Both the position numbers and the translations under genes were made by a program. DNA of 64,000 bases, from NCBI GenBank assembly GCA_030390025.1, contig CM059431.1:125552001-125616000 (forward strand). The letters run 5' to 3'. The notes under the pieces are model-generated. The model worked only from the letters and a program-made list of their open reading frames with translations. It did no database searches and was not told where the DNA came from. This DNA comes from Squalus acanthias (Eukaryota). This document shows, one piece after another, positions 1-39,931 of this stretch (position 1 is the first letter of the stretch; every line of letters starts with the position of its first letter).

Positions 1-609
1 TCGGGTCATGGGGTCCCCATCTACGCTGACCTCAAACCCGACCACCCTCCCACAATCGTGCTTGTGGGTTGCAAACGCGTGCATATTATCTGACACGTAC
101 GTTTGCATGTCCGTTGGGACATCTGCGACCATAAGCCTGAGGTCGTAGCCTCCGGATGGCTGTACGGTACACAGGACCCCCGTTTCTTCCTCTCCTTGAA
201 TTACCATTACCTCGCCTTTTTCACCTTTAGCCCCCCAGAGACAGTGATTTCTGAGGTCCACGAGGATCCCGTGTCCCGCTAGGAGATCGGACCCGAGAAT
301 ACCTCTTCCACCCCCCTTTTGCCATGCCATCAGTATACACTTCCACTTAAGGCGAAGTGTTCCTAAACGAATGGATAGCGGGAGGGAAAACGTGCCAGCC
401 TGTTCTTTCCCTGTGAACCCTGCTAGCGTGAATGGGACCTTGGTAGATAGCGGCGAGTCAAAAGGGTCATCTGTATGGATTATGGTGCAAGACGCTCCCG
501 TGTCCAACAAATAACTGCCCTTCTGTTTCTCTACCTCCATCTCCACCACAGGTCGCCTCCACGCATCATAGCTGAGCGGACACAGGTAGACGGGCTGTGC
601 TGGTTCTAG
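1..609 (-). CDS. pol: pro/pol N-terminal region (aspartic protease, start of RT region), in frame with gag, partial; not in the supplied ORF track
   Basis: Manual translation gives 203 open codons: LEPAQPVYLCPLSYDAWRRPVVEMEVEKQKGSYLLDTGASCTII...GILGSDLL...FATHKHDCGRVV; catalytic DTG at 496-504 and ILGxDLL motif. Confidence 0.93.
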
Positions 610-612
610 TCA
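606..612 (-). promoter_or_regulatory. Stop-codon readthrough signal UGA-CUAG at the gag/pol junction
   Basis: ...GCC CCA TGA CTA GAA...; pol continues in the same frame; UGA-CUA(G) is an established leaky-stop context. Confidence 0.8.
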
Positions 613-2421
613 TGGGGCACTATTAGACGGTCCTGCGGCACCTACGGGGCCGGTTGCGACCGCCACCTGTCCACGCGCATTCAAAACCATCTTGCGCATG
701 GCTCCTAACACTGCTTCGAGGTCGTCGGGGGAGGTGGGTGCCTTTGCTTCCTTAGGCGGGACAGGCGCCTGGGCTCGGACCGCGGGATTTTTATCCTTGG
801 AATCCTTCCAAGGGTTCCTGCAGTGCTTGCGCCAGTGCCCTGTCTTCCCACACCCGTAACAGGCATTACTTGCCTGTGGGGCGCGATTACCCTCCTGATG
901 CCACTCTCTTTGAGCTGGGGCTGCGGGTCGTACCTCATGTACTCTTCCCTTAAAGGGACGTGTCGTCATACCCCTTATGTTACGGTAACCTAACGTGAGT
1001 CGATTCAAGACCGACTCTTCCGTAAGGTTGAGGTCATTGGGATCGAACCAGGCCTTTGCCTGCTCTCTAACGGCTGGTAAACTGTTGGCTATTATGCACC
1101 TAAGCCAATGAATTAAAGCGGCGCCTTCCACATCTTCGCGCTCGGGCGCACCTAGACAGCTGCGCTCATATACTGGCCACAGCCTGTCGGCAAAAACCTT
1201 CGGGGGTTCTCCCTCCATCTGCACTGTCTGTCCCACTCTAGCAAACGGACCTCCGTCGTTCGCTCCCACTACTTCTAGGACCTCATTTTTCAATTCCTCA
1301 TAACTTTTATTTTCCCTCTTGCTCTCGCCTGAGAGACACTGAAGGACCGAGCTGTCTAACGAGAACAGCAGCATTTTTGCTGTCTCCCCATCATCGCAGC
1401 CGTTGATGGCTGCGGCTTGCTCAACTTCCCTGAAATGGACGGAAGGGTCGTCTACCTCGGTCAGCTTCCTTACGTGGTTTATCATGGCTCTCAGCTGATG
1501 TGAACTGTGAGGCAACACCAGCTGTCCGAGGAGATCCCCCGGTTCTTCCCCACCGTTTCTGCTTGGGCCCCTTTTAACCCCCGTTACTGGATACAACGAT
1601 CCCTTTTCTACTTCCTTTTCAACGGGCTCTTTTGTTTCTTCCGTTGCTTCCTCCCTAACCCAGGTTTCTGAATAGCTGGGTGGCGCGGAGGGCGCAGTGG
1701 CTACTACTTCTTCTGCTTTACTTGGTGGGGAATTTCTAAATCTCTCATTTACTAGCGGCTGGCGCGCCGACGGATTGATAAGGCACACCATGCCGTTCGC
1801 ATTATTCACGGCCTTTTTGAGGCTCTCTATCTCTTTTTGGCAGGCGCTATGGTCGGCTCCCTGAAACTTATCCTCAAGGGCCAACTTATACGCCGACCTA
1901 ACCCCCATTAAGCTCTCTTCCTGAGTTCTTATCTGGGCAGCTTGGCGGTTACATCTTTCCTTCATCCTACTCTCGTTCAATTTTGCTTCAGTGATCTGGC
2001 ACTCGAGATACTCTACCCTTGTTTTAAGGTAACTGGAGACTTCCTGGCTTTCCTGGCGTAACTCATTTAAATTCTTAATGAGCACCTCCCCTCCAGAAAC
2101 CTTCTCCTCCATTTCCTCCTCTAAATGCCTGATTCGAGCTGTTAGCGCTGTATTGGTCTGGTTTGAAATCTGAACCTGCCTTTTGTAGCACATAAGCCAG
2201 ACTGCTTTCTCAACTGCCTTTTTATGCTCCTTACTATCAGTCCACCTTTCAGCTGCCTCTAGTGGGCTCTTATCCGCTAACAACTCACTTATCCACTTTT
2301 TAGTTAGATTAACCTTTCCAAACACATAATCCGCTATCTTTTCCTGCATAACATTTCGTACAGTCATTCCAAAATCTAACACACTACCCTCTCGCTGCCA
2401 GTGTCCTGCCGCGGTCGCCAT
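610..2421 (-). CDS. gag: Gag polyprotein, 603 aa
   Basis: Lies between PBS and protease; CYGCGKTGHWRKHC knuckle at 820-861; N-terminal E/K/Q-rich coiled-coil-like region; PSAPPSY motif at 1672-1692. Confidence 0.92.
   Translation of the reverse strand: MATAAGHWQREGSVLDFGMTVRNVMQEKIADYVFGKVNLTKKWISELLADKSPLEAAERWTDSKEHKKAVEKAVWLMCYKRQVQISNQTNTALTARIRHLEEEMEEKVSGGEVLIKNLNELRQESQEVSSYLKTRVEYLECQITEAKLNESRMKERCNRQAAQIRTQEESLMGVRSAYKLALEDKFQGADHSACQKEIESLKKAVNNANGMVCLINPSARQPLVNERFRNSPPSKAEEVVATAPSAPPSYSETWVREEATEETKEPVEKEVEKGSLYPVTGVKRGPSRNGGEEPGDLLGQLVLPHSSHQLRAMINHVRKLTEVDDPSVHFREVEQAAAINGCDDGETAKMLLFSLDSSVLQCLSGESKRENKSYEELKNEVLEVVGANDGGPFARVGQTVQMEGEPPKVFADRLWPVYERSCLGAPEREDVEGAALIHWLRCIIANSLPAVREQAKAWFDPNDLNLTEESVLNRLTLGYRNIRGMTTRPFKGRVHEVRPAAPAQREWHQEGNRAPQASNACYGCGKTGHWRKHCRNPWKDSKDKNPAVRAQAPVPPKEAKAPTSPDDLEAVLGAMRKMVLNARGQVAVATGPVGAAGPSNSAP
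2403..2420 (-). promoter_or_regulatory. Primer-binding site, tRNA-Arg(TCG)
   Basis: TGGCGACCGCGGCAGGAC is complementary to the 3' 18 nt (GTCCTGCCGCGGTCG-CCA) of vertebrate tRNA-Arg-TCG as I recall it; 5 nt from the LTR end. Confidence 0.88.
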
Positions 2422-2425
2422 TTTC

Positions 2426-4149
2426 TGTAAGGGATTCTCCTGACCCTGCGTGTCTCGTAGCCTGTGAGATTCACGCGGCTCTGTGCAGCCTGTATGTCAG
2501 TGCGGGTCTAGGCCTGGTTGCCTGTTCTGGTCTCCAGCCAGTCTGGGAACACTAGACACACCTGTGAGTGGTTCGAATCACTCTCCCTTACGGTTCTAGA
2601 CACTGGACTTAGATGCGAGAGCAGTAATGGAGATAAAACTCATGTAGACTTGGTTTGAATGGTACGAAATGGAAAATCTTTATTGCATGATACTTAAAAT
2701 TATGAAATACATGTCATACGCACAGATTAATGACAGTACAATCTTACAAACGGTTATAATCAATCTTAGGGAAACGAGGAACGAACGGCACAACGTGAAT
2801 AGGGCACACATTACAAATATCCTTAATCTTTACACCCTCCCCTATCAATATCTATCCTAAACTAGCTTCGTAGGATCTCGAGACTCATGCTCACCACTCG
2901 TAATAACTCGGAGAAATCCCGAATAGCTGATCGGATGTTTTTCACCGCAGCACCCACGTGTCGGTCAGGAGATCTCCTGGTCCCACTTGTTTACTGGCTT
3001 CTGCTGCTCGGGCTAGTAGGCTGGACCGTCTGCTGTAGTGAAGACCTCTGTTGGTTGACTTCACAGTTTAGTCGAGGAGCACCGTTGTCAATATCACTGA
3101 TACGATGTGTTTGCACAGTCCAGTTATCATTGATGCAATATGTTTTGTTAGAAGTTTAAAGAAGAAAACTTCCTGTCGAGAAGACTTGGCTGATCGACCT
3201 ACAGGCGCGGTCGGGATTTACTGACCGTGGCGATGGATATGGTCTTCTTCTCTTCTCCTCTCATCTCATCTCATCTCATCTCATCTCGGGCCTTTGGTTC
3301 CGCTGCCAGTTACCAACATAGGTCTTCGTTACGCGACACGAGGTAGATCCGAACGGATCAGAAAGTTCAACAGTCTTTTCAGAAGAGGCAACAGGCACGC
3401 AGAAGCCTAACTACGAGCACACAGGAGCAGCCACGAGGTTACGAATCGACCGGATAAAACACAGGAGCAGCCACGATGATAAAAGCAGCAAGCGAGCAAG
3501 AGCGGCAAGAGCAAGAGAGCGAATGGACGGTTTGGGGCCTGCAATTATAGTGCAAAAATCTTCCGTTTCCCGCCCAACTATAATGTCCATTCTTTTGTTT
3601 AGGGTTTGGCGCCCAAATGTCTTGTATGGGTGATCTCCGTCCTTAATGGGTTTCGGGGCTACTCATGAATGTTTGAGTACCTGTTAATATTTCTCCCATT
3701 GTTAAATCGGTCGGTGTTCTCCCTGGAGGGGTTTGGGGCTTCCAAGTGTCCTGTATAACTACCTGCTAACGGCTCTCTCATCGTAGAGCCGTTGGGAGTT
3801 TACATATTAATGTCCTTTGGATGGGCCCTTAAGTACTTGGTACAATGGCTTTCCTTTGCACCTGGGAGACCGATTCCAGTATCTATGTTTATACTGCAAA
3901 CCCATAATGTCTCGGGTATTATCTTCACTGTGCTGAATCGTTATCGATCTTGCAAAAATGTTTAATGGAACGCCATCTTGTCTGCCTGTTGAAAAGTCTA
4001 GAATGTTCTGTCACGAGGTGCGGCGGCCATTTTACAGGCTGCTTGTGTCCAATTTAAACCTGACAGCATTCTGCTGAAATAAAAGCTGTTTGAACGAAAC
4101 TTTGTGTTTTCTCCTTATTAATCAAATCGCGATAATTGCGAATTCTACA
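2426..4149 (-). repeat. 5' LTR (1724 bp)
   Basis: Minus strand TGTAGAATTCGC...CCCTTACA; ends defined by homology to solo LTRs at 25764 and 49743; TATAA 3545-3549, AATAAA 2679-2684. Confidence 0.92.
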
Positions 4150-4354
4150 GACTGTGCCATTGCATTGCCATGTTGAAGGTTGTGCATATGTGAGCTTGTT
4201 ACATCCATAACATCTAACATTATGATGCCAGCCCATAGATGCACTGAATTAATTCAGCCTATATACTGACCTGGTCCAGGAGCTCTGGGAAAATCTGAAG
4301 GAAAATCAGGAAAACCTGGGTCTCCATTGTCCTTGGACTTACAGAAATCAGGCA

Positions 4355-5661: not shown

Positions 5662-8600
5662 GGGGTACAGTAGCATAGTGGTTATGTTTCTGGACTTGTA
5701 ATCCAGAGGCCTGAACTAATGATCCAGAGAGGTAAATTCAAATCCCACCACGGCAGCTGGGGAATTTAGATTCAGTTAGTTAAATAAATCTGGAATAAAA
5801 ATTTAGCATCCGTAATGGTGACCATAAAACTATCGGATTGTTGTAAAAACCCATCTGGTTCACTAATATCCTTTAGGGAAGGAAATCTGCCATCCTTTAC
5901 CTAATCTGGCTCCAGACCCAAAGCAATGTGATTGACTCTTCTTAACTGCCCCTTTAAATGGCCAGCAAGCCACTCCGATGTACCAAACCGCTACGGAAAA
6001 CAATAATAAAAATAAAACTGGACGGACCAACCGGCACCAAGCTCGGCAGCGGCTTCGGGCACGACAAAGGCACACCAAGTCCAGTCAACCCTGCAAAGTC
6101 CTCCTCACTAACATCTGGGGACTTGTGCCAAAATTGGGAGAGATGTCCCACAGACTAACCAAGCAACAGCCTGACACAGTCAAACTCATAGAATCATACC
6201 TTTCAGCCGATATCCAGGCTCCTCCATCACCATCCCTGGGTATGTCCTGTCCCACATGTAGGACAGACCCACCAGAGGAGGCGGCACAGTGGTATGCAGT
6301 CGGGAGGGAGTGGCCCTGGGAGTTCTCAACAATGACTCCGGACCCCATGAAGTCTCATGGCTTCAGGTCAAGCATGGGCAAGGAAACCTCCTGCTGATTA
6401 CCACCTACCACCCTCCCTCAGCTGATGAATCAGTATTCCTCCATGTTGAACACCACTTGGAAGAGGGCACAGAATGCATTCTGGGTGGGGGACTTCAATG
6501 TCCATTACCAAGAGTGGTTCGGGAGCACCACTACTGACCGAGCTGGCCGAGTCCTGAAGGACATAGCTGCCAGACTGGGCCGATGTCCTTCAGGTGGTGA
6601 GAGAACCAACATGAGGGGAAAAACGTACTTGACCTCATCCTCACCAATCTACCTGTCACTGGTGCATCTGCCCATGACAGTATTGGTAGCAGTGGCTACT
6701 GCACAGTCCTTGTGGAGACGAAGTTCCGTCTTCATACTGAGGACACCCTCCATCGTGTTGTGTGGCACTACCACCGTGCTAAATGGGATCAATTCAGAAC
6801 AGATCTAGCAGCTCAAAACTGGGCATCCATGAGGCACTGTGGGCCATCAGCAGCAGCAGAATAGTATTCCACCACAATCTGTAACCTCGTGGTCTGGCAT
6901 ATCCCTCACTCTACCATTACCATCAAGCCAGGGGACCAACCCTGGTTCAATGAGGAGTGTTGAGCATGCCAGGAGCAGCACCAGATGTACCTAAAAATGA
7001 GGTGCCAACCTGGGGATGCTGCAACACAGGACTACATGCATGCTAAACATCAGAAGCAGCATGCTATAGACAGGGCTAAGCGATTCCACAACCAATGGAT
7101 CAGATCAAAGCTCTGCAGTCCTGCCACATCCAGTCATGAATGGTGGTGAACAATTAAACAACTAATGGGAAGAGGAGGCTCCATGATTATCCCTATCCTC
7201 GATGATGGCAAAGCCCAGCACTCGAATGCAAAGGACAATGCTGAAGCGTTTGCAACCATCTTCAGCCAGAAGTGCTGAGTCGATGAACCATCTCGGCCAC
7301 CTCCTGAGGATCCCATCATAGAAGCCAGTCTTCAGACTATTCGATTCACACCACATGATGTCAAGAAACGGCTGAGCGCACTGGATACAGCAAAGGCTAT
7401 GGGCCCCAACAACATCCCTGCTGTCGTGCTGAAGACTTCTGCTCCAGAACTAGCCGCGCCTCTAGCCAAGCAGTTCCAGTACAGTGACAACACTGGCACC
7501 TACCCGACAATGTGGAAAATTACCTAGGTATGCCTTGTCCACAAAAAGCAGGACAAATCCAATCCGGTCAATTACCACCCCACCAGTCTACATTCAATCC
7601 TCAGCAAAGTGATGGAAGGTGTCATCGACAGTGCTATCAAGCCCCACTTACTAACCAGTAACCTGCTCACGGATGCTCAGTTTGGGTTCCACCAGGACCA
7701 CTCGGCTCCAGACCTCATTACAGCCTTGGTCCAAGCATGGACAAAAGAGCTGAACTCCAGAGGTGAGGTGAGAGTGACTGCCCTTGACATCAAGGCAGTA
7801 TTTGATCGAGTGTGGCATCAAGGAGCCCAAGTAAAATTGAAGCCAATGGGAATTAGGGGGAAAACTCTGCACTGGCTGGAGTCATCGAGCACAAAGGAAG
7901 ATGGTTGAGGTTGTTGGAGGCCAATCATCACAGTCCCAGGACATTGCTGCTGGAGTTCCTCAGGGCAGTGTCCTAGGCCCAACCATCTTCAGCTGCTTCA
8001 TCTATGACCTTCCCTCCATCATAAAGTCAAATGTGGGGATGTTCGCTGATGATTGCACAGTGTTCAGTTCCATTCGCAACTCCTCAGATAATGAAGCAGT
8101 TCATGCCCGCATGCAGCAAGACCTGGACGACATTCAGGCTTGGGCTGATAAGTGGCAAGTAACATTTGTGCTACATAAGTGCCAGGCAATGACTATCTCC
8201 TTCAAGAGAGAGTCTAACCACCGCCCCTTGACATTCAATTGTATTACCATCACCAAATCCGGCACGATCAACATCTTGGAGGTCACCATTGACCAGAAAC
8301 TTAACTGGACCAGCCACATAAATTATGTGGCTACAAGAGCAGGTCAGAGGCTGGTTATTCTGCGGTGAGTGTCTCACCTCCTGACTCCCCAAAGCCTTTC
8401 CACCATCTACGAGACACCAGTCAGGAGTCTGATGAAATACTCTCCACTTGCCTGGATGAGTGCAGCTCCAACAACACTCAAGAAGCTCAACACCATCCAG
8501 GACAAAGCAGCCAGCCTACTTGATTGGCACCCCATCCATCACCTTAAACATTCACTCCCTCCACCACCGGCGTACTGTGGCTGCAGTGTGTACCATCTAC

Positions 8601-12346: not shown

Positions 12347-15300
12347 TCAACAACAACTTGTAATTAGGTAGCACCTTTAATGCAGTAAAACTGAAAGGAT
12401 ATTTACTAGTTCCAGCCCCTTTGGGGCTATCCCGGATCAGACGTATTTCTCAGATGTTCACTTTCAACTAAAGTTTGAGGTAGCCGAATCCTAAAGACGC
12501 TTAACTGGGTCTAAAGGTCTGGGCTATCTCTCCCTAAAGGAAAGGAGCAACCTGAGAATGTTACCATCCTCCAGATAGCACTTTTAATAAGTTTAGCTAG
12601 ACTGTAACGTCCCGGATATTATGAGGGTCCGGAGATCACCCCTCAGAAATGTACCTCTCCACCAAAGAGTGTCCAGAGATTGGGTTCGCGAGTTATTGAT
12701 ACAGAAGACTTATGTGAGACAATTCTAAAAATATATAGAATTTATTAAAAGAACTGACATGCAATTTACAGTTGGTGAATCAGTCAATCGCAATGCTAAC
12801 AGTTCTAAAAAGAGAAAAAATACGATCTTATTTTTAACAGAGAATCTTACTTTTATATCTCAACTTCACTACAGTATTACAGTTCTTAAAATTTCCTATA
12901 CAGGATATCCATCAATATCAAATTATCTTCGATCCCCGTGGTACAAAGAGTGGAAGACCACAGAGCCGCCTCTGTAGTCGAGAATCGTCTTGCCCGATTA
13001 AAGCAATGCTGATATCCCATTTGAGACTTCAATATTTATACCCTTTTTCAGTTGTATCCCATAAGGTTTCTGCTGATCCAAGTTAATTATCACTATTCAT
13101 CTTTCTGCTGACCTCTTGCAATTCTTACTTCTACATCGGCAATAGTTATTGGGCGTTTTTACCATACAGGTGTGAATGCAGATGTCTCTTGTTTCACGTG
13201 TCATCTTTACGAGGGCAGATGTTCCTTATCTTATGTGCCATCTTTAAGAGGTTTAATTTTAGATCACTTATCCAGGGTTGACCATTGTTCTGCTCCCAAA
13301 AGGCCAGGATTCTTTCATAAGAAAGTGTATTTTTCTAAAAAGGCTATATAGTATATTCCTTCTCAAACATACCAAGGCACTTCACAGGAGTATTAAAAGA
13401 CAAAAAATGTGTCACCGAGCCACATAAGGAGAAATTAGGGCAGGTGACCAAAAGCTTAGTCAAACAGGTAGGTTTTAAGGAGCATCTTAAAGGAGGAAAG
13501 AGAGGTAGAGAGGCGGAGAGGTTTAGGCAGGGAATTCCAGAGCTTCGGACCTTGGCAACAGAAGGCACAGCCACCAATGGTTGGGTGATTATAATCAGGG
13601 ATGCTCAGGAGGGCAGAATTAGAGGAGCGCAGAAATCTTGGGGGGTTGTGGGGCAGAAGGAGATTACAGAGATAGGGAGGGGCGAGGCCATGGAGGGATT
13701 TGAAAACAAGGATGAGAATTTTGAAATCGAAGTGCTGCTTAACTGGGAGCCAATGTAGGCCAGCGAGCACAGCGGTGATGGGTGAACGGGACTTGGTGCA
13801 AGTTAGGACATGGGCAGTCGAGTTTTGGATGACCTCAAGTTTACGTCGGATAGAACGTGGGAGACCAGCCAGGAGTGCTTTGGAATAGTCAAGTCTAGAA
13901 GTAACAAAGGCATGGATGACGGTTTCAGCAGCGGATGAGCTGAGGCAAGGGCGGAGACGGGTGATGTTATGGTGGTGGAAATAGGCAGTCTTAGTTATGC
14001 TGTGGAAATGTGGTCGGAAGCTCATTTCAGGGTCAAATATGATACCAAGGTTGCGAACAGTGTGGTTCAGCCTCAGACAGATGTTAGGGAGAGGGATGGA
14101 GTCAGTGGCTATGGAACGGAGTTTGTGGTGGGGGCCAAAAACAATGGCTTCCGTCTTCCCAATATTTAATTGGAGAAAATTTCTGCTCATCCAGAACTGG
14201 ATGTCGGACAAACAGTCTGACAATTTAGAGACCGTGGAGGGGTCGAGAGAAGTGGTAGTGAGGTAGAGCTGGGTGTCGTCAGCGTACATGTGGAAACTGA
14301 CACTGTGGTTTCTGATGATGTCGCCAAGGCCAATATGTAGATGAGAAATAGGAGAGGGCCAAGGATAGATACTTGGTGGACACCAGAGTTAATGATGTGG
14401 GAGCTGGAAGAGAAGCCATTGCAGACGATTCTATGGCTACAAAGAGATAAATAAGAATGGAACCAGGCGAGTGCAGTCCCACCCAGCTGGACGACGGTGG
14501 AGAGGTGTTGGAGAGAGATGGAGTGGTCAACCATGCGAAAGGCTGCAGACAAGTCAAGAAGGACGAGGAGAGATAGTTTACCTTTGTCACAGTCACAAAG
14601 GATGTAATTTGTGACTTTGATGAGCACTGTTTCATACTGTGGCAAGGGTGGAAACCTGATTGGAGGGATTCAAACATGGAGTTGCAGGAAAGATGGGCAT
14701 GGATTTGGGAGGCGACAACACATTCAAGGAATTTGGAGAGGAAAGGAAGGTTGGAGATGGGGTGGTAGTTTGCAAGGACGGAAGGGTCAAAGGTTGATTT
14801 TTTGAGTAGCAGGCGATGACGGCAGATTTGAGGGAGAGGGAGACAGTAACTGAGGAGAGAGAACCGTTAACAATGTCAGCTAACATGGGAGCCAGAAAAG
14901 GAAGTTGGGTAGTCAGCAGTTTGGTGGGAATAGGGTCGAGGGAGCAGGAAGTGGGCCTCATGGACAAGATGAACATGGAGAGGTCATGAGGGGAGATCGG
15001 AGAGAAACTAGAGAAAGATGTGAGTTCAGGGCTAGGGCAGGGGGGAACCTTAGAGGAAGTTTGGCCCATGGGCTAGGGGAAGGAAGGGAAGTGGCAGAGG
15101 CAGCTGAATGGATGTTCTCAATCTTAGAGACAAAGAAGTCCATGAGCTCCTCACACTTGTTGTCGGAGGTGAGGGTGGAGGAGACGGGAGAGAGGTTTAA
15201 GAAGACGGTTAGCAGTAGAGAATAGGAGCCAGGGTTTATCTTTGCATTCCAGAATGATTCTGGAATAGTGAGCAATTTTGGTAGACAAGAGCAGGTCCTG

Positions 15301-24130: not shown

Positions 24131-27100
24131 TCAATTCAATATGATCATGGCTGATCCTCTATCACAATACCATATTCCCGCTCTCTCCCCATACCCCTTG
24201 ATGCCTTTTGTGTCTAGAAATCTATCTATCTCCTTCTGAAATATATTCAGTGACTTGGCCTCCACCGCCTTCTGTGGTAGAGAATTCCACAGTTTCACCA
24301 CCCTCTGAGTGAAGAAATTTCTCATCTCAGTCCTAAATGTCCTACCCAGTATCCTGAGACTATGACCCCTCGCTCTCAACCCCCCAGCCAGGGGAAGCAT
24401 CCTTCCTGCATGCAGTCTGTCTAGCCCTGTCAGAATTTTATACATTTCAATGAGATCCCCTCTCATTCTTCTAAACTCTAGTGAATACAGTGCTAGTCGA
24501 CCCAATTTCTCCTCATACGACAGTCCTGCCAGACCAGGAATCAGTCTGGTGAACCTTCGCTGCACTCCCTCTATGGCAAGTATATCCTTTCTTAGGTAAG
24601 GAGACCAAAACTGCACATAGTACTCCAGGTGTGGTCTCACCAAGGCCCTGTATAACTGTAGTAAGACATCCTTGCTCCTGTACCCAAATCCTCTTGCAAT
24701 GAAGGCCAACATACCATTTGCCTTCCTAACTGCTTGCTACACCTGCATGTTTGCTTTAAGTGACTGGTGTACAAGGACACCCAGGTCCCTCTGTACATCA
24801 ACATTTCCCAATCTATCACCATTTAAATAATACTCTGCCTTTCTGTTTTTCCTACCGAAAGGAATAACTTCACATTTCTCCACGTTATACTGCATCTGCC
24901 ATGTATTTGCCCACTCACTCAACTTGTCTAAATCGCCTTGAAATCACTTTGCATCCTCCTCACAACTCACAATCCCACCTAGTTTTGTGTCGTCAGCAAA
25001 CTTGGAAATATTACATTTGGTTCCCTCATCCAAATCATTGATATATATTGTGATTGGTGAACTCAAGCATAGGTCCCTTGCAGTCAGAATCAGGGGAATT
25101 TATAATGGGGAACAAAGAAATTGCAGACCAATTAAATACATACTTTGGCTCTGTCTTCACGAAGGAGAACACAAATAACCTCCCAGAGATGTTGGGGAAC
25201 ATAGGGTCTAATGAGAGGGAGGAACTGAATGAAATCAGTATTGTAGGGAAATGGTGTTAGGGAAATTGATGGCATTAAAGGCTGATAAATCCCCAGGGCC
25301 TGATAATCTACATCCTAGGGTACTTAAGGAAGTGGCCCTAGAAATAGTAGATGCATTGCTGGTCATCTTCCAAAATTCTATAGACTCAGGAACAGTTTCC
25401 CATGGATTGGAGGGTAGCTAATGTTACCCCACTGTTCAAAAAAGGTGGTAAAGAAAAAACGGGGAATTATAGTAAGCCTGACATCGGTTGTGGGGAAAAT
25501 GCTAGAGTCCATTATAAAAGATGTAATAGTAGAGCACTTGGAAAACAATGACAGGATTGGACAAAGTCGACATGGATTTACAAAAGGTAAATCATGCTTG
25601 ACTAATCGACTGGAATTTTTTGAGGATGTAACTGATAGAATAGGTAAGGGTGAACCAGTGGATGTGGTGTATTTGGACTTTCAGAAGGCTTTCGATAAGG
25701 TCCCGCATAAGAGATTAGCGTGTAAAGTTAAGGCACATGGGATTGCGGGCAAGGTACTGACTTTGTAAGGGTTGCGTGTCTCAGACGGTGCTGGTGCGAG
25801 GTTAGGCCTTCGTTGCCTAATACTATTGCTTGCTCTGGTCTCCGGCCAGCCTTATTGCAATAAGCACCTGTGAGTGGTTCGACCCACTCGCCCTTACGGT
25901 TCTAACACTGGACTTAGGTGCAGGGAGCAGTAATGCAGAGAAAACTCAAATAGACCCGGTTGAATAGTACGAAATGGAAATCTTTATTGCATAGCGTCCA
26001 AAATCATGAAGTACATGTCATAGGCGCAAATTAACGAGAGTACAAGTATACATACATTCATAAAGCATGGTCTATGGAAATGAAGAACGCACGGCACATC
26101 GTAAAAAGGGGAACACATTATACTTTAACCTTAATAACCACCCTCCCTTAACAATACCTACACTACATCTAGATTTGTAGGATCGTGAAACATGCTCACC
26201 ACTCGTTTAAATTCGGAGATTTTAAAGTGAGGCACTCAGCTCGTTTCGCTGCAGCGCCTGACTGTCACATCTTTGGAAAGGTCTCTGTACCCCACTTGTT
26301 TATTTTCGCTGCTGCGACAAGCAGGCCAGACACCCTGTTGTCATGAAGAACTCGACTGACCTCGGACACAGTTCAAAGAAGAGACTTCCTGTGCTCGACA
26401 CCGGTTGTCGGTAGACTTCAATGAAAAGTTCTTTATTTATATTTTTGGGCGCGGTCGGGGTTTACTGACCATGGCGGCACGTGGATTCTTCTCCTCTTCT
26501 TCTCGTCTCATCTCGTCTCTTCGGGCCTCCGGGTCCAGACACCGTTTACCGACCCTCGGGATGGTGTACCCTGTTACTTGCCCTTGTCGGGGCGGCTCGT
26601 TCCGATTGAGCTCCACCCAACACTTGAATAAACTGACCAGTACGGCTAAGAGTCAAGAGTCAACAAAGTCCAGAGAGAAAATCAAGAGGCTGCAAGTCAA
26701 GCGAGTTCATGAAGAGGCAAGCGAATAAGAGAATAAACCCTCAGCAGTCAGCAGCGAGATAAGAGACCGATGGACATTTGTTCTCTATAGTTATAGTGAT
26801 GTGTCCTCCTTATCTCCCGCTCAAATCTTAATGTTTGTCCTTTGTGTAATATTGGCGCACAAAACTCCCAGCATGGGGCGGTTGTCTTCTTTAACGGGTT
26901 TCGGTAGCACATGAAACTGGCCAACTATCCGTTAATGTTTTCCCCATTGTTGACCCAGCCAGGATGTGTATGAATCATCTCCCTGACTGGTTTTGGGGGC
27001 CCCCGAATACTGACTTAATCACCCGTCAATGTCTCTCTCATTGTAGAGCCGGGGGGGTATTTGAGTTTTGATGTGTCTGGATGGGCCTTCGCTTGCCCAG

Positions 27101-27687: not shown

Positions 27688-30600
27688 CTTTATTATCAGG
27701 ACAGCATTTCGTTTAATAAAACTGATCAAACGAATCTGCTTCTCTTGTGTTATTTTGAATCGCGATAATTGCGAAACTTTACAACTTGGATAGAGAACTG
27801 GTTGGCAGACAGGAAGCAAAGAGTTGGAATAAACGGGTCTTTTTCCGAGTGGCAGGCAGTGACTAGTGGGGTTCCGCAGGGATCGGTCCTAGGACCCCAG
27901 CTATTCACTATATATATTAATGATCTAGACGAGGGAACTAGATGTAATATCTCCAAGTTTGCAGATGACACAAAGCTGGGTGGGCGTGTGTGCTGCGAGG
28001 AGGATGCCAAGAAACTCCAGTATGATTTGGACAGGTTGGGTGATTGGGCAGAAGCATGGCAGATGCAGTATAATGTGGATAAATGCGAGGTTATCCACTT
28101 TGGTGGCAAAAACAGAAAGGCAGATTATTATCTGAACGGCAATAGATTGGGAGAAGGGGAAGTGCAACGAGACCTGGGTGTCCTTGTGCACCAGTCGCTG
28201 AAGGTAAGCATACAGGTGCAGCAGGCGGTGAAGAAGGCAAATGGTATGTTGGCCTTCGTAGCGAGAGGGTTTGAGTATAGGAACAAGGATGTCTTGCTGC
28301 AGCTGTACAGGGCCTTGGTGAGACCACACCTTGAGTATTGTGTGCAGTTTTGGTTGCCTTATCTGAGGAAGGATGTTCTTGCCATGGAGGGTGTGCAGCG
28401 AAGATTCACCAGACTGATACCTGGGATGGCAGGAATGACATACGAGGAGAGATTGGGTCGAATGGGCTTATACTCGTTGGAGTTTAGAAGAATGAGAGGA
28501 GATCTCATTGAAACTTATAAAATTCTAACAGGGCTAGACAGACTGGATGCAGGAAGGATGTTCCCGATGGCGGGTGAGTCCAGAACAAGAGGTCACAGTC
28601 TAAAGATAAGGGGTAAGCCATTTAGGACAGAGATGAGGAGGAATTTCTTCACCCAGAGAGTGGTGAACCTGTGGAATTCTCTACCACAGAAGGCAGTTGA
28701 GGCCAAGTCAGTAAATATATTCAAGAAGAAGTTAGATATATTTCTTAAGGCTAAAGGTGTCAAGGGATATGGGGAGAAGGCAGGGACAGGGTACTGAGTT
28801 TGGATGATCAGCCATGATCTCATCGAATGGCAGAGCAGGCTCGAGGGGCCGAATGGCCTACTCCTGCTCCTATCTTCTATGTTTCTATGTTTCTATGAAT
28901 AGCTTGGGCCCAAGCACTGATCCCTGCGGTACCCCACTAGTCACCGCCTGCAACCCCGAAAAAGATCCATTTATTCCTACTCTCTGTTTCCTGTCTGTTA
29001 ACCAATTTTCAATCCATGCCAGTATATTACCCCCAATCCCATGTGCTTTAATTTTGCACACTAACCTCTTATGTGGGACTTTATCAAAGGCCTTCTGAAA
29101 ATCCAAATACACCACATCCACTGGTTCTCCCTTATCTATTCTACCAGTTACATCCTCAAAAAACTCCAGTAGGTTTGTCAAGCTCGATTTCCCTTTCATA
29201 AATCCATGTTGACTTTGTCTAATCCCTTTTGTATTTTCAAAGTGTCCTGTAATCACATCCTTTATAATAGACTCCAGCATTTTCCCTTCTACTGATGTTA
29301 GGCTAACCGGTCCATTGTTCCCCTGTTTTCTCTCTCCCTCCTTTTTTAAAAAGTGGGGTTATATTTGCCACCTTCCAATCTGCAGGAACTGTTCCATAAT
29401 CTATAGAATTTTGGAAGATGACAACCAATGCATCCACTATTTCCATGGCTACCTCTTTTAGTTCTCTGGGATGCAGATTATCAGACCCTGGGGATTTATC
29501 AGCTTTCAGTCCCATTAATTTCTCCAGCACTATTTTTGTACTAATACTAATTTCTTTTCATTCCTCCTTCTCACTAGACCCTTGGTTCCCGAGCATTTCT
29601 GAGAAGTTATTTGTGTCCTCTTCCGTGAAGACAGAACCAAAGTATTTGTTTAATTGCTCTGCCATTTCCTTATTCCCCATTATAAATTCTCCCGTTTCTG
29701 ACTGTAAGGGACTTACATTTATCTTCACTAATCTTTTTCTTTTTACATACTTGTAGAAGCTTTTACAATCCGCTTTTATGTTCCTTGCAAGTTTACTCTC
29801 CTACTCTATTTTTCCCCTCTTAATCAATCTCTTGGTCCTTTTTTGCTGAACTCTAAACTGTTCCCAATCCTCAGGCTTGCTACTTTTTTCTTGCAACTTT
29901 ATATGACTCCTCTTTGGATTTAATACTATCCTTAATTTCTTTTGTTAGCCATGGTTGGGCCTCTTTTCCTTTTGTGTTTTTGCGCCAGAAAGGAATGTAT
30001 AACTGTTGCAATTCATGCATTCATTCCTTAAATGTTAGCCATTGCCTATCCACCGTCATGCCTTTTAATGAAGCTCCCCAATCTATCATAGCCAACTCAC
30101 TCCTCATACCTTCGTAGTTTCCTTTGTTTAGATTTAGGACCCTAGTTTCGGATTGGACTTCTTCACTTTCCATCTTAATGAAGAATTCTATCATGTTATG
30201 GTCACTCTTCCCTAAAGGCCCCCGCACAAGAAGATTATTAATTAACCCCTTCTCATTGCACAATACCCAATCTAGGATAACCTGTTCCCTAGTTGGCTCC
30301 TCAATGTACTGGCCTGAAAAACCATCTCGTACACACTCCAGGAATTCATCCTCCACAGTATTATTGCTAATTTGGTTTGGCCAGTTTATATGTAGATTAA
30401 ATTCACCCATGATTACTGTAGTACCCTTGTTACATGCATCTCTAATTTCCTGTTTAATGGCATCTCCTACATTCCCACTACTGTTTGGAGGCATATAGAC
30501 AACTCCCACCAATGTTTTCTGCCCCTTGGTGCTTCGTAGCTCCACCCATACTGATTCTACATCTTTATTTTCTGAGCCAATATCCTTTCTCACTATTGTT

Positions 30601-31094
30601 CTGATTTCATCCTTTACTAACAACGCCACCCCACCTCATTTTCCTTTTTGCCTGTCCTTCCAAATATCGAATATCCTTGGATATTCAGCTCCCAGCCTTG
30701 GTCACCCTGCAGCCATGTCTCCGTAATCGCAATTATATCATATCCATTTACATCTATTTGCGCTGTTAATTCAGATACAGTGCCTTTAGATTTGTCTTTT
30801 TAACATTTTTAGACATCTTTACCATGGCCCTATTTGTCTTATTACCATTTTTTCTTACCCGGACCCTATTTGTTAGTGCACTCCTTTGTTTGTACACTTT
30901 GTCCCTTCCTGACACAATCTGGTTATCCTTACCCCAATCACTTTCCTACACTGCTTCCTTGTCTTTTCTCTTTAGCATACTAGATTTCTTTCCACCGGGA
31001 CCCTCCCCCCCTCCCCCCCCCTCCCTTATTTAGTTTAAAGCCCTATCTACCTCCCTAGTTATTCGATTCGCTAGAACTCTGGTCCCAGCATGGT

Positions 31095-35751: not shown

Positions 35752-38700
35752 ATAAAAAAAAATGTAATTCATTTTTATGGGATTTGGGCATCGCTGTCCA
35801 GGCCAGCATTTATTGCCCATCCCTAGTTGCCCCTTGAGAAGGTGGTGGTAAGCTGCCTTCTTGAATTGCTGCAGTACGTGTGGTGAAGGTACTCCCACAG
35901 TGCTGTTGGGTAGGGAGTTCCAGGAATTTGACCCAGCGACGATGAAGGATCGGCGATATACTTCTAAGTCAGGATGGTGTGTGACTTGGAGGGGAACTTG
36001 GAGGTGGTGGTGTTTCCATGCGCCTGCTGCCCTTGTCCTTCTAGGTGGAAGAGGTCGCGGGTTTGGGAGGTGCTGCCGAAGAAGCCTTGGCGAGTTGCTG
36101 CAGTGCATCCTGTAGATGGTACACACTGCAGCCATGGTACGATGGTGGTGGAGGGAGTGAATGTTTAAAGTGGTGGATGGGGTGCCAATCAAGCGGGCTG
36201 CTTTGTCCTGGATGGTGTTGAGTTTCTTGAGTGTTGTTGGAGCTGTAGTCATCCAGGCAAGTGAAGAGTATTCCATCACACTCCTTATTTGTGCCTTGTA
36301 GATGGTGGAAAGGTTTTGGGGAGTCAGGAGATGAGACACTCATCGCAGAATACCTAGCCTCAGACCTGCTCTTGTTGCCACAGTATTTATGTGGCTGGTC
36401 CAATTAAGTTTCTGGTCAATGGTGACCCCCCCAGGATGCTGATGGTGGGGGATTCGGCGATGGTAATGCTGTTGAATGTCAAGGGGCGGTGGTTAGACTC
36501 TCGCTTGTTGGAGATAGTCATTGCCTGGCACTTCTGTGGCATGAATGTTACCTGCCACTTATCAGCCCAAGCCTGAACGTCGTCCAGGTCTTGTTGCATG
36601 CGGGCGTGGACTGCTGCATTATCTGAGGAGTTGTGAATGGAACTGAACACTGTGCAGTCATCAGCGAACATCCCCATTTCTGACCTTATGTTGGAGGGAA
36701 GGTCATTGATGAAGCAGCTGAACTGGCTGGGCCGAGGACACTGCCCTGAGGAACTCCTGCAGTGATGACCTGGGGCTGTGATGATTGACCTTCAACCACC
36801 ACATACATCTTCCTTTGTGCTAGGTATGACTCCAACCAGTGGAGAGTTTTACCCCCCAATTCCCATTGACTTCAGTTTTACTAGGGCTCCTTGATGCCAC
36901 ACTCGGTCAAATGCTGCCTTGATGTCTAGGGCAGTCACTCTCACCTCACCTCTGGAATTCGTCTCCTTTGTCCATGTTTGGACCAAGGCTGTAATGAGGT
37001 CGGGAACCGAGTGGTCTTGGCGGAACCCAAACTGGGCATCAGTGCGCAGGTTATTGGTGAGAAAGTGACTCCAGACCCACAGCAATGTGGTTGACTCTTA
37101 ACAGCCCTCTAAAATAGCCTAGCATTTCACTCAGTTGCAACTAAACGCTATGAAACAAAATAATAAGAATGAAACTGGACGGACCACCCGGCATCGACCT
37201 CATCACCGGCTACGGACACGGCAACGGCACACCCAGCCCAATCAACCCTGCAAAGTCCTCCTCACCAACATCTGGGGACTTGTGCCAAAATTGGGAGAGC
37301 TGTCCCACAGACTAGTCAAGCAACAGCCTGACATAGTCATACTCACAGAATCATACCTTTCAGCCAATGTCCCAAACTCCTCCATCACCATCCTATGTCT
37401 TGTCCCACCGGCAGGAATGACCCACCAGGGGTGGTGGCACAGTGGTATACAGTCGGGAAGGAGTGGCCCTGGGAGTCCTCAACATTGACTCTGGACCCCA
37501 TGAAGTATCATGGTTCCAGTTCAAGCATGGGCAAGGAAACCTCCTGCTGATTACCACCTACCGCCTTCCCTCAGCTGATGAATCAGTTCTCCTCCATGTT
37601 GAACACCACTTGGAAGAAGCACTGAGAGTAGCAAGGGCACAGAATGTACTCTGGGTGGGGGACTTCAATGTCAGGGCCCATTGCCTTTGCCATATCCAGT
37701 GCGCTCAGCCCATTTCTTGATATCACGTGGAGTGAATCGAATTGGCTGAAGACTGGCTTCTGTGATGGTGGGGATCTCAGGATGAGGCCGAGACAGATCA
37801 TCCACTTGGCACTTCTGGCTGAAGATGATTGCAAACACTTCAGCCTTGTCTTTTGCACTCACGTGCTGGGCTCCACCATCATTGAGGATGGGGATATTCA
37901 TGGAGCCTCCTCCTCCCGTTAGTTATTTAATGGTCCACCACCTTTCACAACTGGATGTGGCAGGACTGCAGAGCTTTGATCTAATCCGTTGATTGTGGGA
38001 TCGCTTAGCCCAGTCTATAGCATGCTGCTTCCGCTTTATAGCATGCAGGTAGTCCTGTGTTGCAGCTTCCACAGGTTGGCACCTCAGTTTTAGGTACGCC
38101 TGGTGCTCCTCCTGGCATGCTCTTCTACACACGTTGTTGAACCAGGGTTGTTCTCCTGGCTTGGTGGTAATGGTAGAGTGAGGGATATGCTGGGCCATGA
38201 GGTTACAGATTGTGGTGGAATAAAATTCTGCTGCTGCTGATGGCCCACAGCGCCTCATGGATGCCCAGTTTTGAACTGCTAGATCTGTTCTGAATCTACC
38301 CATTTAGTACGGTGGTAGTGCCACACAACACGATGGAGGGTGTCCTCAACGTGAAGACAGGACTTCGTCTCCACAATGGCAGTGCGGTGGTCACTGCCAC
38401 CAATACTGTCATGGACAGATGCATCTGCGACAGGTAGATTGGTGAGGATGAGGTCAAGTAGGTTTTTGCCTCATGTTGGTTCTCTCACCAGACTTGCAGT
38501 TATGTCCTTCAGGACTCAGCCAGCTCGATCAGTAGTGGTGCTTCTGAGCGACTCTTGGTGATAGACATTGAATTCCCCCACCCAGAGTACATTCTGTACC
38601 CTTGCTAATCTCAGTGCTTCTTCCAAGTTGTGTTCAACATGGTGGAGTATTGATTCATCAGCTAAGGGAAGGCGGTTTCCTTGCCCATGCTTGACCTGGT

Positions 38701-39931
38701 GCCATGAGACTTCATGGGGTCCGAAGCCAATTTTGAGGTCTCCCAGGGCCACTCCTTCCCGAAGGTATACCACTGTGCCGCCACCCCTGGTGGGTCTGTC
38801 CTGCCGGTGGGACAGGACATACCCAGGGATGGTGATGGAGGAGTTTGTGACATTGGCTGAAAGGTATGATTGTGTGAGTATGAATATGTCAGGCTGTTGC
38901 TTGACTAGTCTGTGTGACTGCTCTCCCAATTTTGGCACAAGTCCCCAGATGTTGGTGAGGAGGACTTTGCAGGGTCGGCTGGGCTGGGTGTGCTGTTGCC
39001 GTGTCCGTAGCTGGTGCTGGGTGGTCCGTCCGGTTTCATTCTTATTATTGTGTATCGTAGCAGTTTGTTACAACTGAGTGGCTTGCAAGCCATTTCAGAG
39101 GGCAGTTAAGAGTCAACCACATTGCTGTGGGTCTGGAGTCACACATAGGCCAGACCAGGTAAGGACAGCAGATTTACTTCCCTAAAGGACATTAGTGAAC
39201 CAGATGGGTTTTTACGACAATCCAATAGTTTCATGGTTACCATTACTGATACTAGTAATTATTCCAGATTTATTTAATTATCTGAATTTAAATTTCTCCA
39301 GTTTCCGTGGTGGGATTTGAACTCACGTCTCTGGATCATTAGTCCAGGCCTCTGGATTACATTACCACTACGCTACCGTTCCCACTTTGACAGTGACAAC
39401 AGTCCCCATCTGAGTCCTCTGCAGCAGAACTAGGTTGCGATCTCGCCCTCTGGTAAGCAGGCACCTGTGCTATTCTTTTCCCCAGCCTGGCTCCAGCGCA
39501 CTTGTGCCCAGCTTCTTACCACGTGCAGATCCCGCCTCTATACTGCACTTGGGGACAATCCCAGGCAATCAGGAGGGGAGAAGGTCGGCTATTGTGACTT
39601 GTGGAGGGCAAAGGTCAGCCATATCGACTTGTGGAGGGCAAAGGTCAGCCATAACAACTTGTGGGGGCAGAAGGTCAGCCATCGTGGCAGGGAGTGAGAT
39701 CAGATTTCGGGGCTGGTGGGGGGTGGGTGGTGATTGGCAGTCACAGCAGGCGGGAGACAGAGGCCACGATTTTCACTATTACTGATACTAGGTTTTTTAT
39801 TCCAGATTTATTTAATTAACTGAGTTTAAATTCCCCAGCTGCCGTGGTGGGATTTGAACTCACGTCTCTGGATCATTAGTCCAGGCCTCTGGATTACTAG
39901 CCCAGTGACATTACCATTATGCTACCATTCC
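35752..39931 (-). mobile_element. Rearranged copy of the tRNA-headed LINE (duplicated head, internal inverted segment)
   Basis: Homologous to 5662-8950; heads ending at ~39383 and ~39931; + strand segment ~37066-37672. Confidence 0.85.
39580..39685. repeat. ~30-bp minisatellite, about 3.5 copies
   Basis: AAGGTCAGCCATATCGACTTGTGGAGGGCA-like unit repeated. Confidence 0.85.

Follow-up and report, generated by a model that had tools for sequence, protein, structure and literature searches.

A retained in-frame UGA between gag and pro-pol in a Squalus acanthias retrovirus family, and its probable readthrough

How does a retrovirus come to make Pol when its gag and pro-pol genes lie in one reading frame with a single stop codon between them? 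The question is raised by a provirus on the minus strand of a 64,000-nucleotide stretch of Squalus acanthias DNA (contig CM059431.1, positions 125,552,001 to 125,616,000; called here the window), where gag ends at a TGA followed at once by CTAG. A sequence-only reading of the window had proposed that the element sets its Gag:Gag-Pol ratio with this host-type readthrough motif. The core of that proposal stands: the UGA is in frame and conserved in a C-U-R-G context, and readthrough is by far the best account of how Pol is expressed. The downstream hairpin noted in the same reading is not supported as functional, and CUAG is not strictly required. We conclude that the gag UGA is probably read through into pro-pol, chiefly by virtue of its UGA C-U-R-G context, and would put the probability of this at about 0.78.

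A minority of the ribosomes on the full-length RNA would read the gag UGA by means of a near-cognate tRNA and go on in frame into the protease, giving Gag-Pro-Pol. The signal would lie chiefly in the stop codon and the nucleotides directly 3′ of it, here UGA-CUAG, and no pseudoknot of the gammaretroviral type appears to be involved. Retroviruses such as murine leukaemia virus (MLV) need a few percent of Gag-Pol, and a readthrough level in the range 3.5–31% is compatible with this. That is the range given for genes with UGA-CUAG, in which some 12 nt of 3′ sequence are enough, while UGA-CUA alone gives 1.5% (PMC4132726). UGA-CUAG was necessary in the four mammalian genes of Loughran et al., and percent-level readthrough driven by the context alone is known for OPRL1, AQP4 and MDH1 in HEK-293T cells (PMC4132726).

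The gag/pro-pol junction across copies and lineages

The junction in the window is made up of the following features.

613..2421, minus strand: gag open reading frame (ORF), 603 amino acids, with a coiled-coil-rich N-terminal part, a PPSY motif and one CCHC knuckle
864..817, minus strand: CCHC zinc knuckle of gag, CYGCGKTGHWRKHC, from the translation
610..612, minus strand: gag stop TGA, the proposed readthrough codon, from the translation of 2421..1
606..609, minus strand: CTAG at +4 to +7, the type II leaky context, read from the sequence
541..609, minus strand: the 23 codons that separate the stop from the first in-frame ATG, encoding LEPAQPVYLCPLSYDAWRRPVVE, the N-terminal region of the protease
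540..538, minus strand: first in-frame ATG after the gag stop, in the context GAGATGG
1..609, minus strand: start of pro-pol, a retroviral aspartyl protease (Pfam RVP and gag-asp_proteas), with the DTG at 504..496

When window 2421..1 is translated on the minus strand there is a single stop between gag and pro-pol, which share the frame. The sequence-only reading had described a lone TGA at 610-612 ending gag, then CTAG and 203 open in-frame codons containing LLDTGA and ILGSDLL, with no need of a frameshift, and every element of this description is confirmed, on the minus strand. The 203 codons run to window position 1 and contain LLDTGAS (codons 34–40 after the stop) as well as ILGSDLL; the frame stays open for 1291 further codons beyond the window edge (10000..6125 of L031, the 10 kb upstream of the window). 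The CCHC knuckle, whose match to Pfam zf-CCHC is weak (E 0.3), lies 68 codons upstream of the stop, and the DTG at codons 36–38 downstream, with residue 1 of the HIV-1 protease corresponding to about codon 12 after the stop. The 9-nt spacer that follows CTAG is CTAGAACCA. The window's TGACTAG has the UGA, the C at +4 and the UA at +5/+6 that define the type II context. At equal base frequencies CTAG is expected after a given stop once in 256 cases, so that its presence in one copy is unremarkable; it is its retention over copies and lineages that exceeds chance.

The family is abundant in its own genome of 3.7 Gb. A 501-nt junction query gave 1896 first-look candidates, and the 40 that were scored were all 99–100% identical; a 41-nt junction core was the same in 30 of 30 loci from this query, one of which is the window's own copy. 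The frames are mostly open. In 36 of 40 window-type loci gag runs without a stop to the end of the locus or over 500 codons or more, and in 36 of 40 pro-pol runs without one to the end of the locus. With the closest Pol relative as a protein query (P0001), 20 of the 150 scored matches lay within an open frame of 1496 codons, approximately the full pro-pol, and 14 more within frames of over 1400 codons. The two long terminal repeats (LTRs) of the window copy match over 1725 bp with two differences (99.9% identical; BLAST of the window against L031). With near-identical LTRs, copies 99–100% identical and mostly open frames, the family is recently active, now or in the very recent past, and a working route to Pol must therefore exist. 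Some same-strand junction matches are paired at 11.08–11.1 kb (e.g. C20:24437845 / 24448951 and C3:90695797 / 90706879). This spacing equals the 12.8 kb of the provirus less one LTR of 1.72 kb, which suggests tandem proviruses with a common LTR, and part of the copy number would thus come from duplication at the DNA level.

Is the stop codon a property of the family, or a private nonsense mutation of the window copy? A pattern search of the genome requiring 31 exact flanking bases found 627 copies with TNA at the stop position and none with VNN, TNB or THA; thus the codon is TGA in 627 of 627. Allowing one extra mismatch, 705 copies match the flank pattern. Among 80 fetched loci (L003 is the window's own copy, and L006 and L041 are the same place) TGA is present at the junction in 79, the other (L079) being not alignable. 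The idea of a private mutation therefore fails. The context at these loci is CTAG in 68, CTAA in six, CTGG in four and AGAG in one, making 74 with CTA(G/A).

These loci fall into three sets. The window-type loci have TGACTAG in 40 of 40. The subfamily loci, obtained with the P0001 protein query and 77–84% identical over gag-pro, have TGA in 30 of 30, with CTAG in 23, CTAA in six and CTGG in one. The deeper lineages, ten pieces of 471 bases obtained with a frog-homologue query, have TGA at the same codon in nine, with CTAG in five, CTGG in three and AGAG in one decayed copy. In this last set the gag ends can barely be aligned, with a nucleotide identity of 37–61% in the last 72 nt. The CTGG lineage keeps TGA in 31 of 32 copies, and in all lineages looked at gag and pol remain in one frame. 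With the decayed AGAG copy set aside, all lineages have UGA followed by C (+4) and U (+5), after which +6 may be A or G and +7 either G or A. Alignment of other copies and relatives thus shows TGA conserved and CTAG mostly so (68 of 80), and with CTGG or CTAA in sister lineages CUAG would not be strictly required. Among the 40 variant-letter entries listed, of 1657 in contigs of public runs, none falls on the stop or CTAG, which is uninformative either way. P0001, 87% identical in Pol, begins at a Met past the junction and is silent on the stop.

The sequence after the stop

Is the sequence past the stop translated? From the stop up to the first in-frame ATG, a stretch of 24 codons, the ratio of non-synonymous to synonymous differences (pN/pS) is 0.14–0.40 among four lineages, with a synonymous difference (pS) of 0.49–0.77. 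Low pN/pS combined with high pS indicates that these codons are translated in the gag frame. The protein they encode is kept over the lineages as LE.AQP.YLC.L.YD.W.RP.V.M, and in a sequence search of solved structures residues 16–46 after the stop align to residues 5–35 of the HIV-1 protease (AWRRPVVEMEV...LLDTGA against LWKRPLVTIRI...LLDTGA). The first Met after the stop aligns to protease residue 13, so that a start there would drop the W-x-R-P region and the N-terminal strand. The selected codons encode the protease N-terminus, and ribosomes must then come from gag across the UGA. Of the arguments for readthrough that can be had from sequence alone, this selection on the N-terminus of the protease is the strongest.

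No conserved downstream structure backs the readthrough signal. The sequence-only reading had noted a possible hairpin after the 9-nt spacer.

580..600, minus strand: hairpin GCACAG-N9-CTGTGT, 6 bp including one G•U, with a 9-nt loop

The hairpin is present in the sequence, but it does not hold up as a signal. It has an energy of −4.8 kcal/mol and an equivalent follows 147 of the 2079 codons (7.1%) of the element's gag-pro-pol, so it is no rarer than chance; it is also missing from the minimum-free-energy fold. In relatives there is no compensatory change, 88.9% of cells are paired, and four of the nine lineage sequences, all of one lineage, have a C•U mismatch. A stem-loop 6–9 nt past the stop, taken from the minimum-free-energy fold, was rejected likewise: its z score is −1.0 over 83 nt (26 of 200 shuffles are as stable) and +0.57 over 143 nt, and changes in its 3′ arm are uncompensated in the subfamilies. 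RNAalifold applied to nine sequences from four to five lineages gave −7.9 kcal/mol with a covariation term of −0.31, and no convincing structure. A search of Rfam over the junction at E ≤ 10 returned a chance snoRNA match only and no readthrough-knot family, and an H-type pseudoknot sought by eye has at best a second stem of 5 bp and a loop of 44 nt.

Nucleotides +16 to +55 are nearly invariant in the younger subfamilies, and third-position divergence falls to 0.08 at +30 to +60. Similar third-position dips occur elsewhere in pro. The synonymous-site profile of 30 subfamily copies was not used as evidence because of these other dips and because of the mosaic make-up of the copies, which resemble one another much more in pol than in gag. 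Compared with the window type, the subfamily loci (L042–L071) differ by 10–40% in gag and 10–25% in the protease region, and by only 1–10% in reverse transcriptase (RT), which suggests recombination between lineages. As a separate observation, a long-range helix may be drawn on the minus strand between 598..592 and 519..517 with 510..507, closing about 90 nt past the stop; its inner helices are weak.

Readthrough and its rivals

Several points weigh against readthrough by the immediate context. The window-type copies are so alike that their common TGA is in itself a matter of inheritance and not selection, and the argument from retention of the stop rests on the deeper lineages, some four to five independent comparisons. 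CTAG is not invariant (CTAA at six loci, CTGG at four, AGAG at one), and in OPRL1 all four nucleotides of CUAG mattered, which bears on the CTAA and CTGG variants (PMC4132726). The yeast element Tca2 has an in-frame gag UGA whose local context does not bring about readthrough (PMC2194720), so that the layout is not by itself proof of context-driven readthrough. The first in-frame ATG is conserved in all lineages, in the good context GAGATGG. A long-range pair at window 598–507 (alignment columns 15 and 106) is A–U, G–C, C–G and G–U in four lineages, a covariation score reached in 10 of 500 shuffles, so that the RNA may contribute. Lastly, that readthrough occurs, how efficient it might be and whether the context would suffice are all judged here from the nucleotide sequence.

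The 598–507 pair, with its four standard pair types, is what would be expected if readthrough depended on a downstream RNA structure or long-range contact in the manner of a type III signal, with CUAG merely contributing, and the near-invariance of +16 to +55 in the younger subfamilies, with its dip to 0.08, points the same way. We regard this as unlikely. The folds are weak (z −1.0 and +0.57; RNAalifold −7.9 kcal/mol) with an uncompensated 3′ arm, a pS of 0.49–0.77 among lineages leaves little room for constraint at the RNA level, similar dips are found elsewhere in pro, and Rfam has no readthrough-knot family to match. A different kind of explanation dispenses with passage of the stop altogether. 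Pol might be translated from an RNA of its own, produced by splicing or from an internal promoter (foamy viruses and the junction promoter of Tca2 are examples), or by reinitiation at the ATG 23 codons downstream. The conserved ATG at 540..538 in GAGATGG would suit this, as would an integrase nearest to that of foamy virus among solved structures, and the UGA of Tca2 is a precedent (PMC2194720). We consider it improbable, since the 23 codons before the ATG show purifying selection in the gag frame and code for the N-terminal region of the protease, and since a CCHC-bearing Gag in frame with pol in all lineages looked at would be needless for a separate Pol. Splicing into pol was named in the sequence-only reading as an outcome that would overturn it. 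Contigs of four public runs were mapped to 10 kb of the provirus, and among the 15 joints listed of 36 none enters pol, the only long one running from the leader to env; as these are contigs only, this is weak evidence.

Two further accounts of the UGA are less probable again. It could be a tolerated defect, in copies that are non-autonomous and spread by trans-complementation or genomic duplication, and the near identity of the window-type copies, some in tandem about 11.08–11.1 kb apart, is of the kind that this would produce. Yet the stop is at the same codon position in lineages whose synonymous divergence is saturated and whose gag ends cannot be aligned; there is no sense-codon copy among the exact-flank copies, both frames are open in most copies, and the copies occur on many different contigs, that of the window (the only one checked) having its own 4-bp target duplication. 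We think a defect very improbable. Decoding as selenocysteine has in its favour solely that the codon is UGA, and we give it hardly any credence: a search of 20 kb covering the whole provirus at the Rfam gathering score found no selenocysteine insertion sequence (SECIS) and no other family. Readthrough through the immediate UGA C-U-R-G context thus remains the preferred reading.

The provirus and its place among retroviruses

The whole element is a complete provirus of about 12.8 kb on the minus strand, in the order LTR, gag, UGA, pro-pol, env, LTR. The window carries its 5′ third; the rest was read from L031. Beyond the junction its features are as follows.

2426..4149, minus strand: 5′ LTR, about 1724 bp, TG...CA (BLAST of the window against L031)
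4153..4150: 4-bp target-site duplication AGTC, bounding the provirus
2403..2420, minus strand: 18-mer resembling a primer-binding site, TGG..., 5 nt past the LTR and overlapping the first ATG of the gag ORF
from about 2894, minus strand: putative splice donor of env mRNA, GTGAGC, from a GT..AG joint in one contig of run X2
L031 10000..6125, past the window edge: Pol domains, Pfam RVT_1, RT_RNaseH_2, RNase_H, Integrase_H2C2 and rve
L031 5833..3485, minus strand, outside the window: env, a stop-to-stop ORF of 815 codons, giving an Env of 783 amino acids from the first Met

What kind of retrovirus is this? Pol has a dual RNase H, with a tether at residues 267–399 (Pfam RT_RNaseH_2 / RT_RNaseH) and RNase_H at 447–590. 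Against solved structures the RT scores about equally to the enzymes of Ty3, MLV/XMRV and foamy virus. The nearest Pol proteins are P0001, followed by frog, Xenopus and coelacanth models labelled 'NYNRIN-like' or 'Gypsy integrase-like' at 36–45% identity. In a quick RT tree of 22 rows, made without lokiretrovirus, foamy or epsilon references, the element groups with the frog, Xenopus and coelacanth homologues (support 86) as sister to a clade of SnRV-like, SSSV-like and gamma sequences (95), and stands apart from six Ty3/Gypsy outgroup rows (100).

Env matches no Pfam family, and neither Env nor ten of its homologues matches PF00523; a protein atlas, and a search of Protein Data Bank (PDB) sequences with a profile made from the Env alignment, yielded no usable family at the sequence level. 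One homologue, the chimeric model P0097, has a sub-threshold Baculo_F match (E 0.0011), which is a lead only. The nearest named homologues are from skate and sawshark. The mean pLDDT of an AlphaFold model based on 24 homologues is 56.6, with residues 240–650 mostly at 55–90 and lower at about 310–390. A Foldseek search with this low-confidence model listed at ranks 1–50 nothing other than paramyxovirus and pneumovirus F proteins, the best being 1ztm (E 8.5e-11, TM 0.49 on the target). In Env the RQRR site precedes a long stretch of helix, after which come a large domain rich in beta structure, another helix and the membrane anchor.

Lokiretroviruses have an F-like Env as their reported hallmark (PMC7947760), and the element resembles them in its LTR-gag-pol-env order, in its tether and RNase H (also present in canonical retroviruses) and, on the model, in an apparent F-like Env fold with the basic RQRR site and heptad regions. 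Frogs and coelacanth, the hosts of its nearest Pol homologues, are among the reported lokiretrovirus hosts (PMC7947760). It differs in that its Env has no PF00523 sequence match, and the RT tree holds no lokiretrovirus reference. In the available text of the first lokiretrovirus paper cartilaginous fishes are not mentioned, nor is a stop-codon, readthrough or frameshift strategy in the text, as distinct from the supplements, of two lokiretrovirus papers. We would call the element lokiretrovirus-like, its membership being unproven. Spumaretroviruses differ in having a Gag without CCHC and a Pol made from its own spliced mRNA, where the element has a CCHC Gag in frame with pol. The sequence-only reading had framed the element against Ty3/Gypsy, wrongly: this is a retrovirus, possessing env and a dual RNase H. 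It is Ty3-like in the RT score, equal to that for MLV RT, and in an SH3_Tf2-1-like stretch after the integrase, and unlike Ty3/Gypsy in its second bona fide RNase H, predicted fusion glycoprotein gene, putative spliced env message and 4-bp target duplication. Assignment to Ty3/Gypsy is ruled out by the dual RNase H, the apparently F-like Env and the separation in the RT tree.

How does its junction compare with known readthrough systems? Gamma- and epsilonretroviruses express pro-pol by readthrough of an in-frame stop, and wherever this has been verified by experiment in a retrovirus the signal is of the UAG-GGA type and includes a pseudoknot (2026 review, PMC13517186). The junction resembles that of gammaretroviruses of the Moloney MLV type in its single frame and in its single stop between the nucleocapsid knuckle and the protease DTG, near the protease N-terminus (L084–L090), whereas the references have TAG-GG..GTCAGGG where UGA-CUAG stands here. 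In the gammaretroviral type III signal UAG-GGA/GGG is followed by 8 nt of purine-rich spacer and then an H-type pseudoknot (PMC13517186); the element lacks it, its spacer being not rich in purines and its junction matching no knot in Rfam and showing no conserved structure. Among reference-like genomes of IMG/VR, seven of gamma type (L084–L090) have TAG-GG(A/G), one has TAG-GGC, one TGA-AGA (L092) and one TAG-GAC, and none of them has TGA-CTA. TAG-GGC and TGA-AGA are the hexanucleotides of SnRV and SSSV (PMC13517186).

UGA itself has been recorded at such junctions, in SSSV (UGAAGA), ZFERV (UGACGA) and toad RMEV (UGAAGU) (PMC13517186, section 4.1.2), and as an in-frame TGA in XtERV-S of Xenopus (PMC8278194). 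Like the element these are retroviruses of lower vertebrates with a UGA between in-frame gag and pro-pol, for which readthrough has also been inferred. None of the first three has CUA(G), unlike the element; XtERV-S was compared by its TGA only. Readthrough for Gag-Pol, and UGA within the fish and frog host range, is thus already known, and the description of the mechanism as unusual for a retroelement was overstated, readthrough being the rule in gamma- and epsilonretroviruses. What stands of it is that the CUAG (type II) context without structure appears unrecorded for a retrovirus. In the review as available, type II contexts (UGACGG, UGACUA) are given only for alphaviruses, coltiviruses and a dicistrovirus, and the cis-elements of epsilon-like and unclassified fish and frog retroviruses are stated to be unknown (PMC13517186). 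We found no retroviral UGA-CUA(G) in the literature covered, which includes the available part of that review and the lokiretrovirus papers without their supplements. The heptanucleotide UGA-CUAG is shared with alphavirus nsP3/nsP4 and with OPRL1, OPRK1, AQP4, MAPK10 and MDH1, genes that need no RNA structure (PMC4132726). Those sites differ in lying in replicase or cellular genes and not at a gag-pol junction, and in the element's family +6 and +7 vary.

That a recently active, lokiretrovirus-like lineage of cartilaginous fish with an F-type Env sets its Gag:Gag-Pol ratio by a bare UGA-CUAG, with no stimulatory structure, is a proposal we make tentatively, at a little short of even odds. If true, it would be the first retroviral readthrough of type II and the first account of Pol expression in this deep-branching group, using the bare host-type context that is otherwise that of AQP4, MDH1, the opioid receptors and alphaviruses. 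Retroviral Gag-Pol readthrough has been studied almost solely in MLV-type viruses, with UAG and a pseudoknot. The natural series of CTAG, CTAA and CTGG lineages, with the same UGA and no detectable structure, could show if the minimal host-type leaky context suffices. As stop-codon readthrough for Gag-Pol is long established, the finding refines known biology and brings no new principle. There is interest for palaeovirology too, in hundreds of near-identical copies with mostly open frames over the stretches looked at, LTRs 99.9% identical and an apparently F-like Env.

Some details of the provirus remain. The 18-mer that resembles a primer-binding site overlaps the first gag ATG, so Gag may begin at a later Met. 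The joint of run X2 skips 7048 nt, from the leader at GTG/GTGAGC (about window 2894) to 13 nt upstream of the env ATG; its ends are canonical, with a pyrimidine tract and then CAG/G on the acceptor side. It looks like env mRNA, on one contig with a short side of 23 letters from a run whose RNA status is guessed, and a DNA copy of the joined form is possible. The putative donor lies inside the LTR, with some 468 nt between it and the 3′ end of the LTR, so that R/U5 would be very long. The N-terminal 200 amino acids of gag (window 2421..1800, minus strand) form a long coiled-coil-like region with sub-threshold Pfam coiled-coil matches only. An SMC-like gene is reported in some lokiretroviruses. 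The C-terminal 330 or so amino acids of Pol (L031 7100..6125, minus strand), past the integrase, are of low complexity, rich in proline, glutamate and serine, and without a family match; the SH3_Tf2-1-like stretch directly before them (E 0.00038) is below the Pfam cut-off.

The remainder of the window is filled, on ORF translations inspected by eye, with apparent fragments of non-LTR retrotransposons (RT/endonuclease-like) at 5900..8400, 13456..14866, 24131..24736, 27769..28797, 30021..30635, 38516..39067, 58565..59542 and 61460..63202, and a possible DDE-transposase fragment at 61030..61629.

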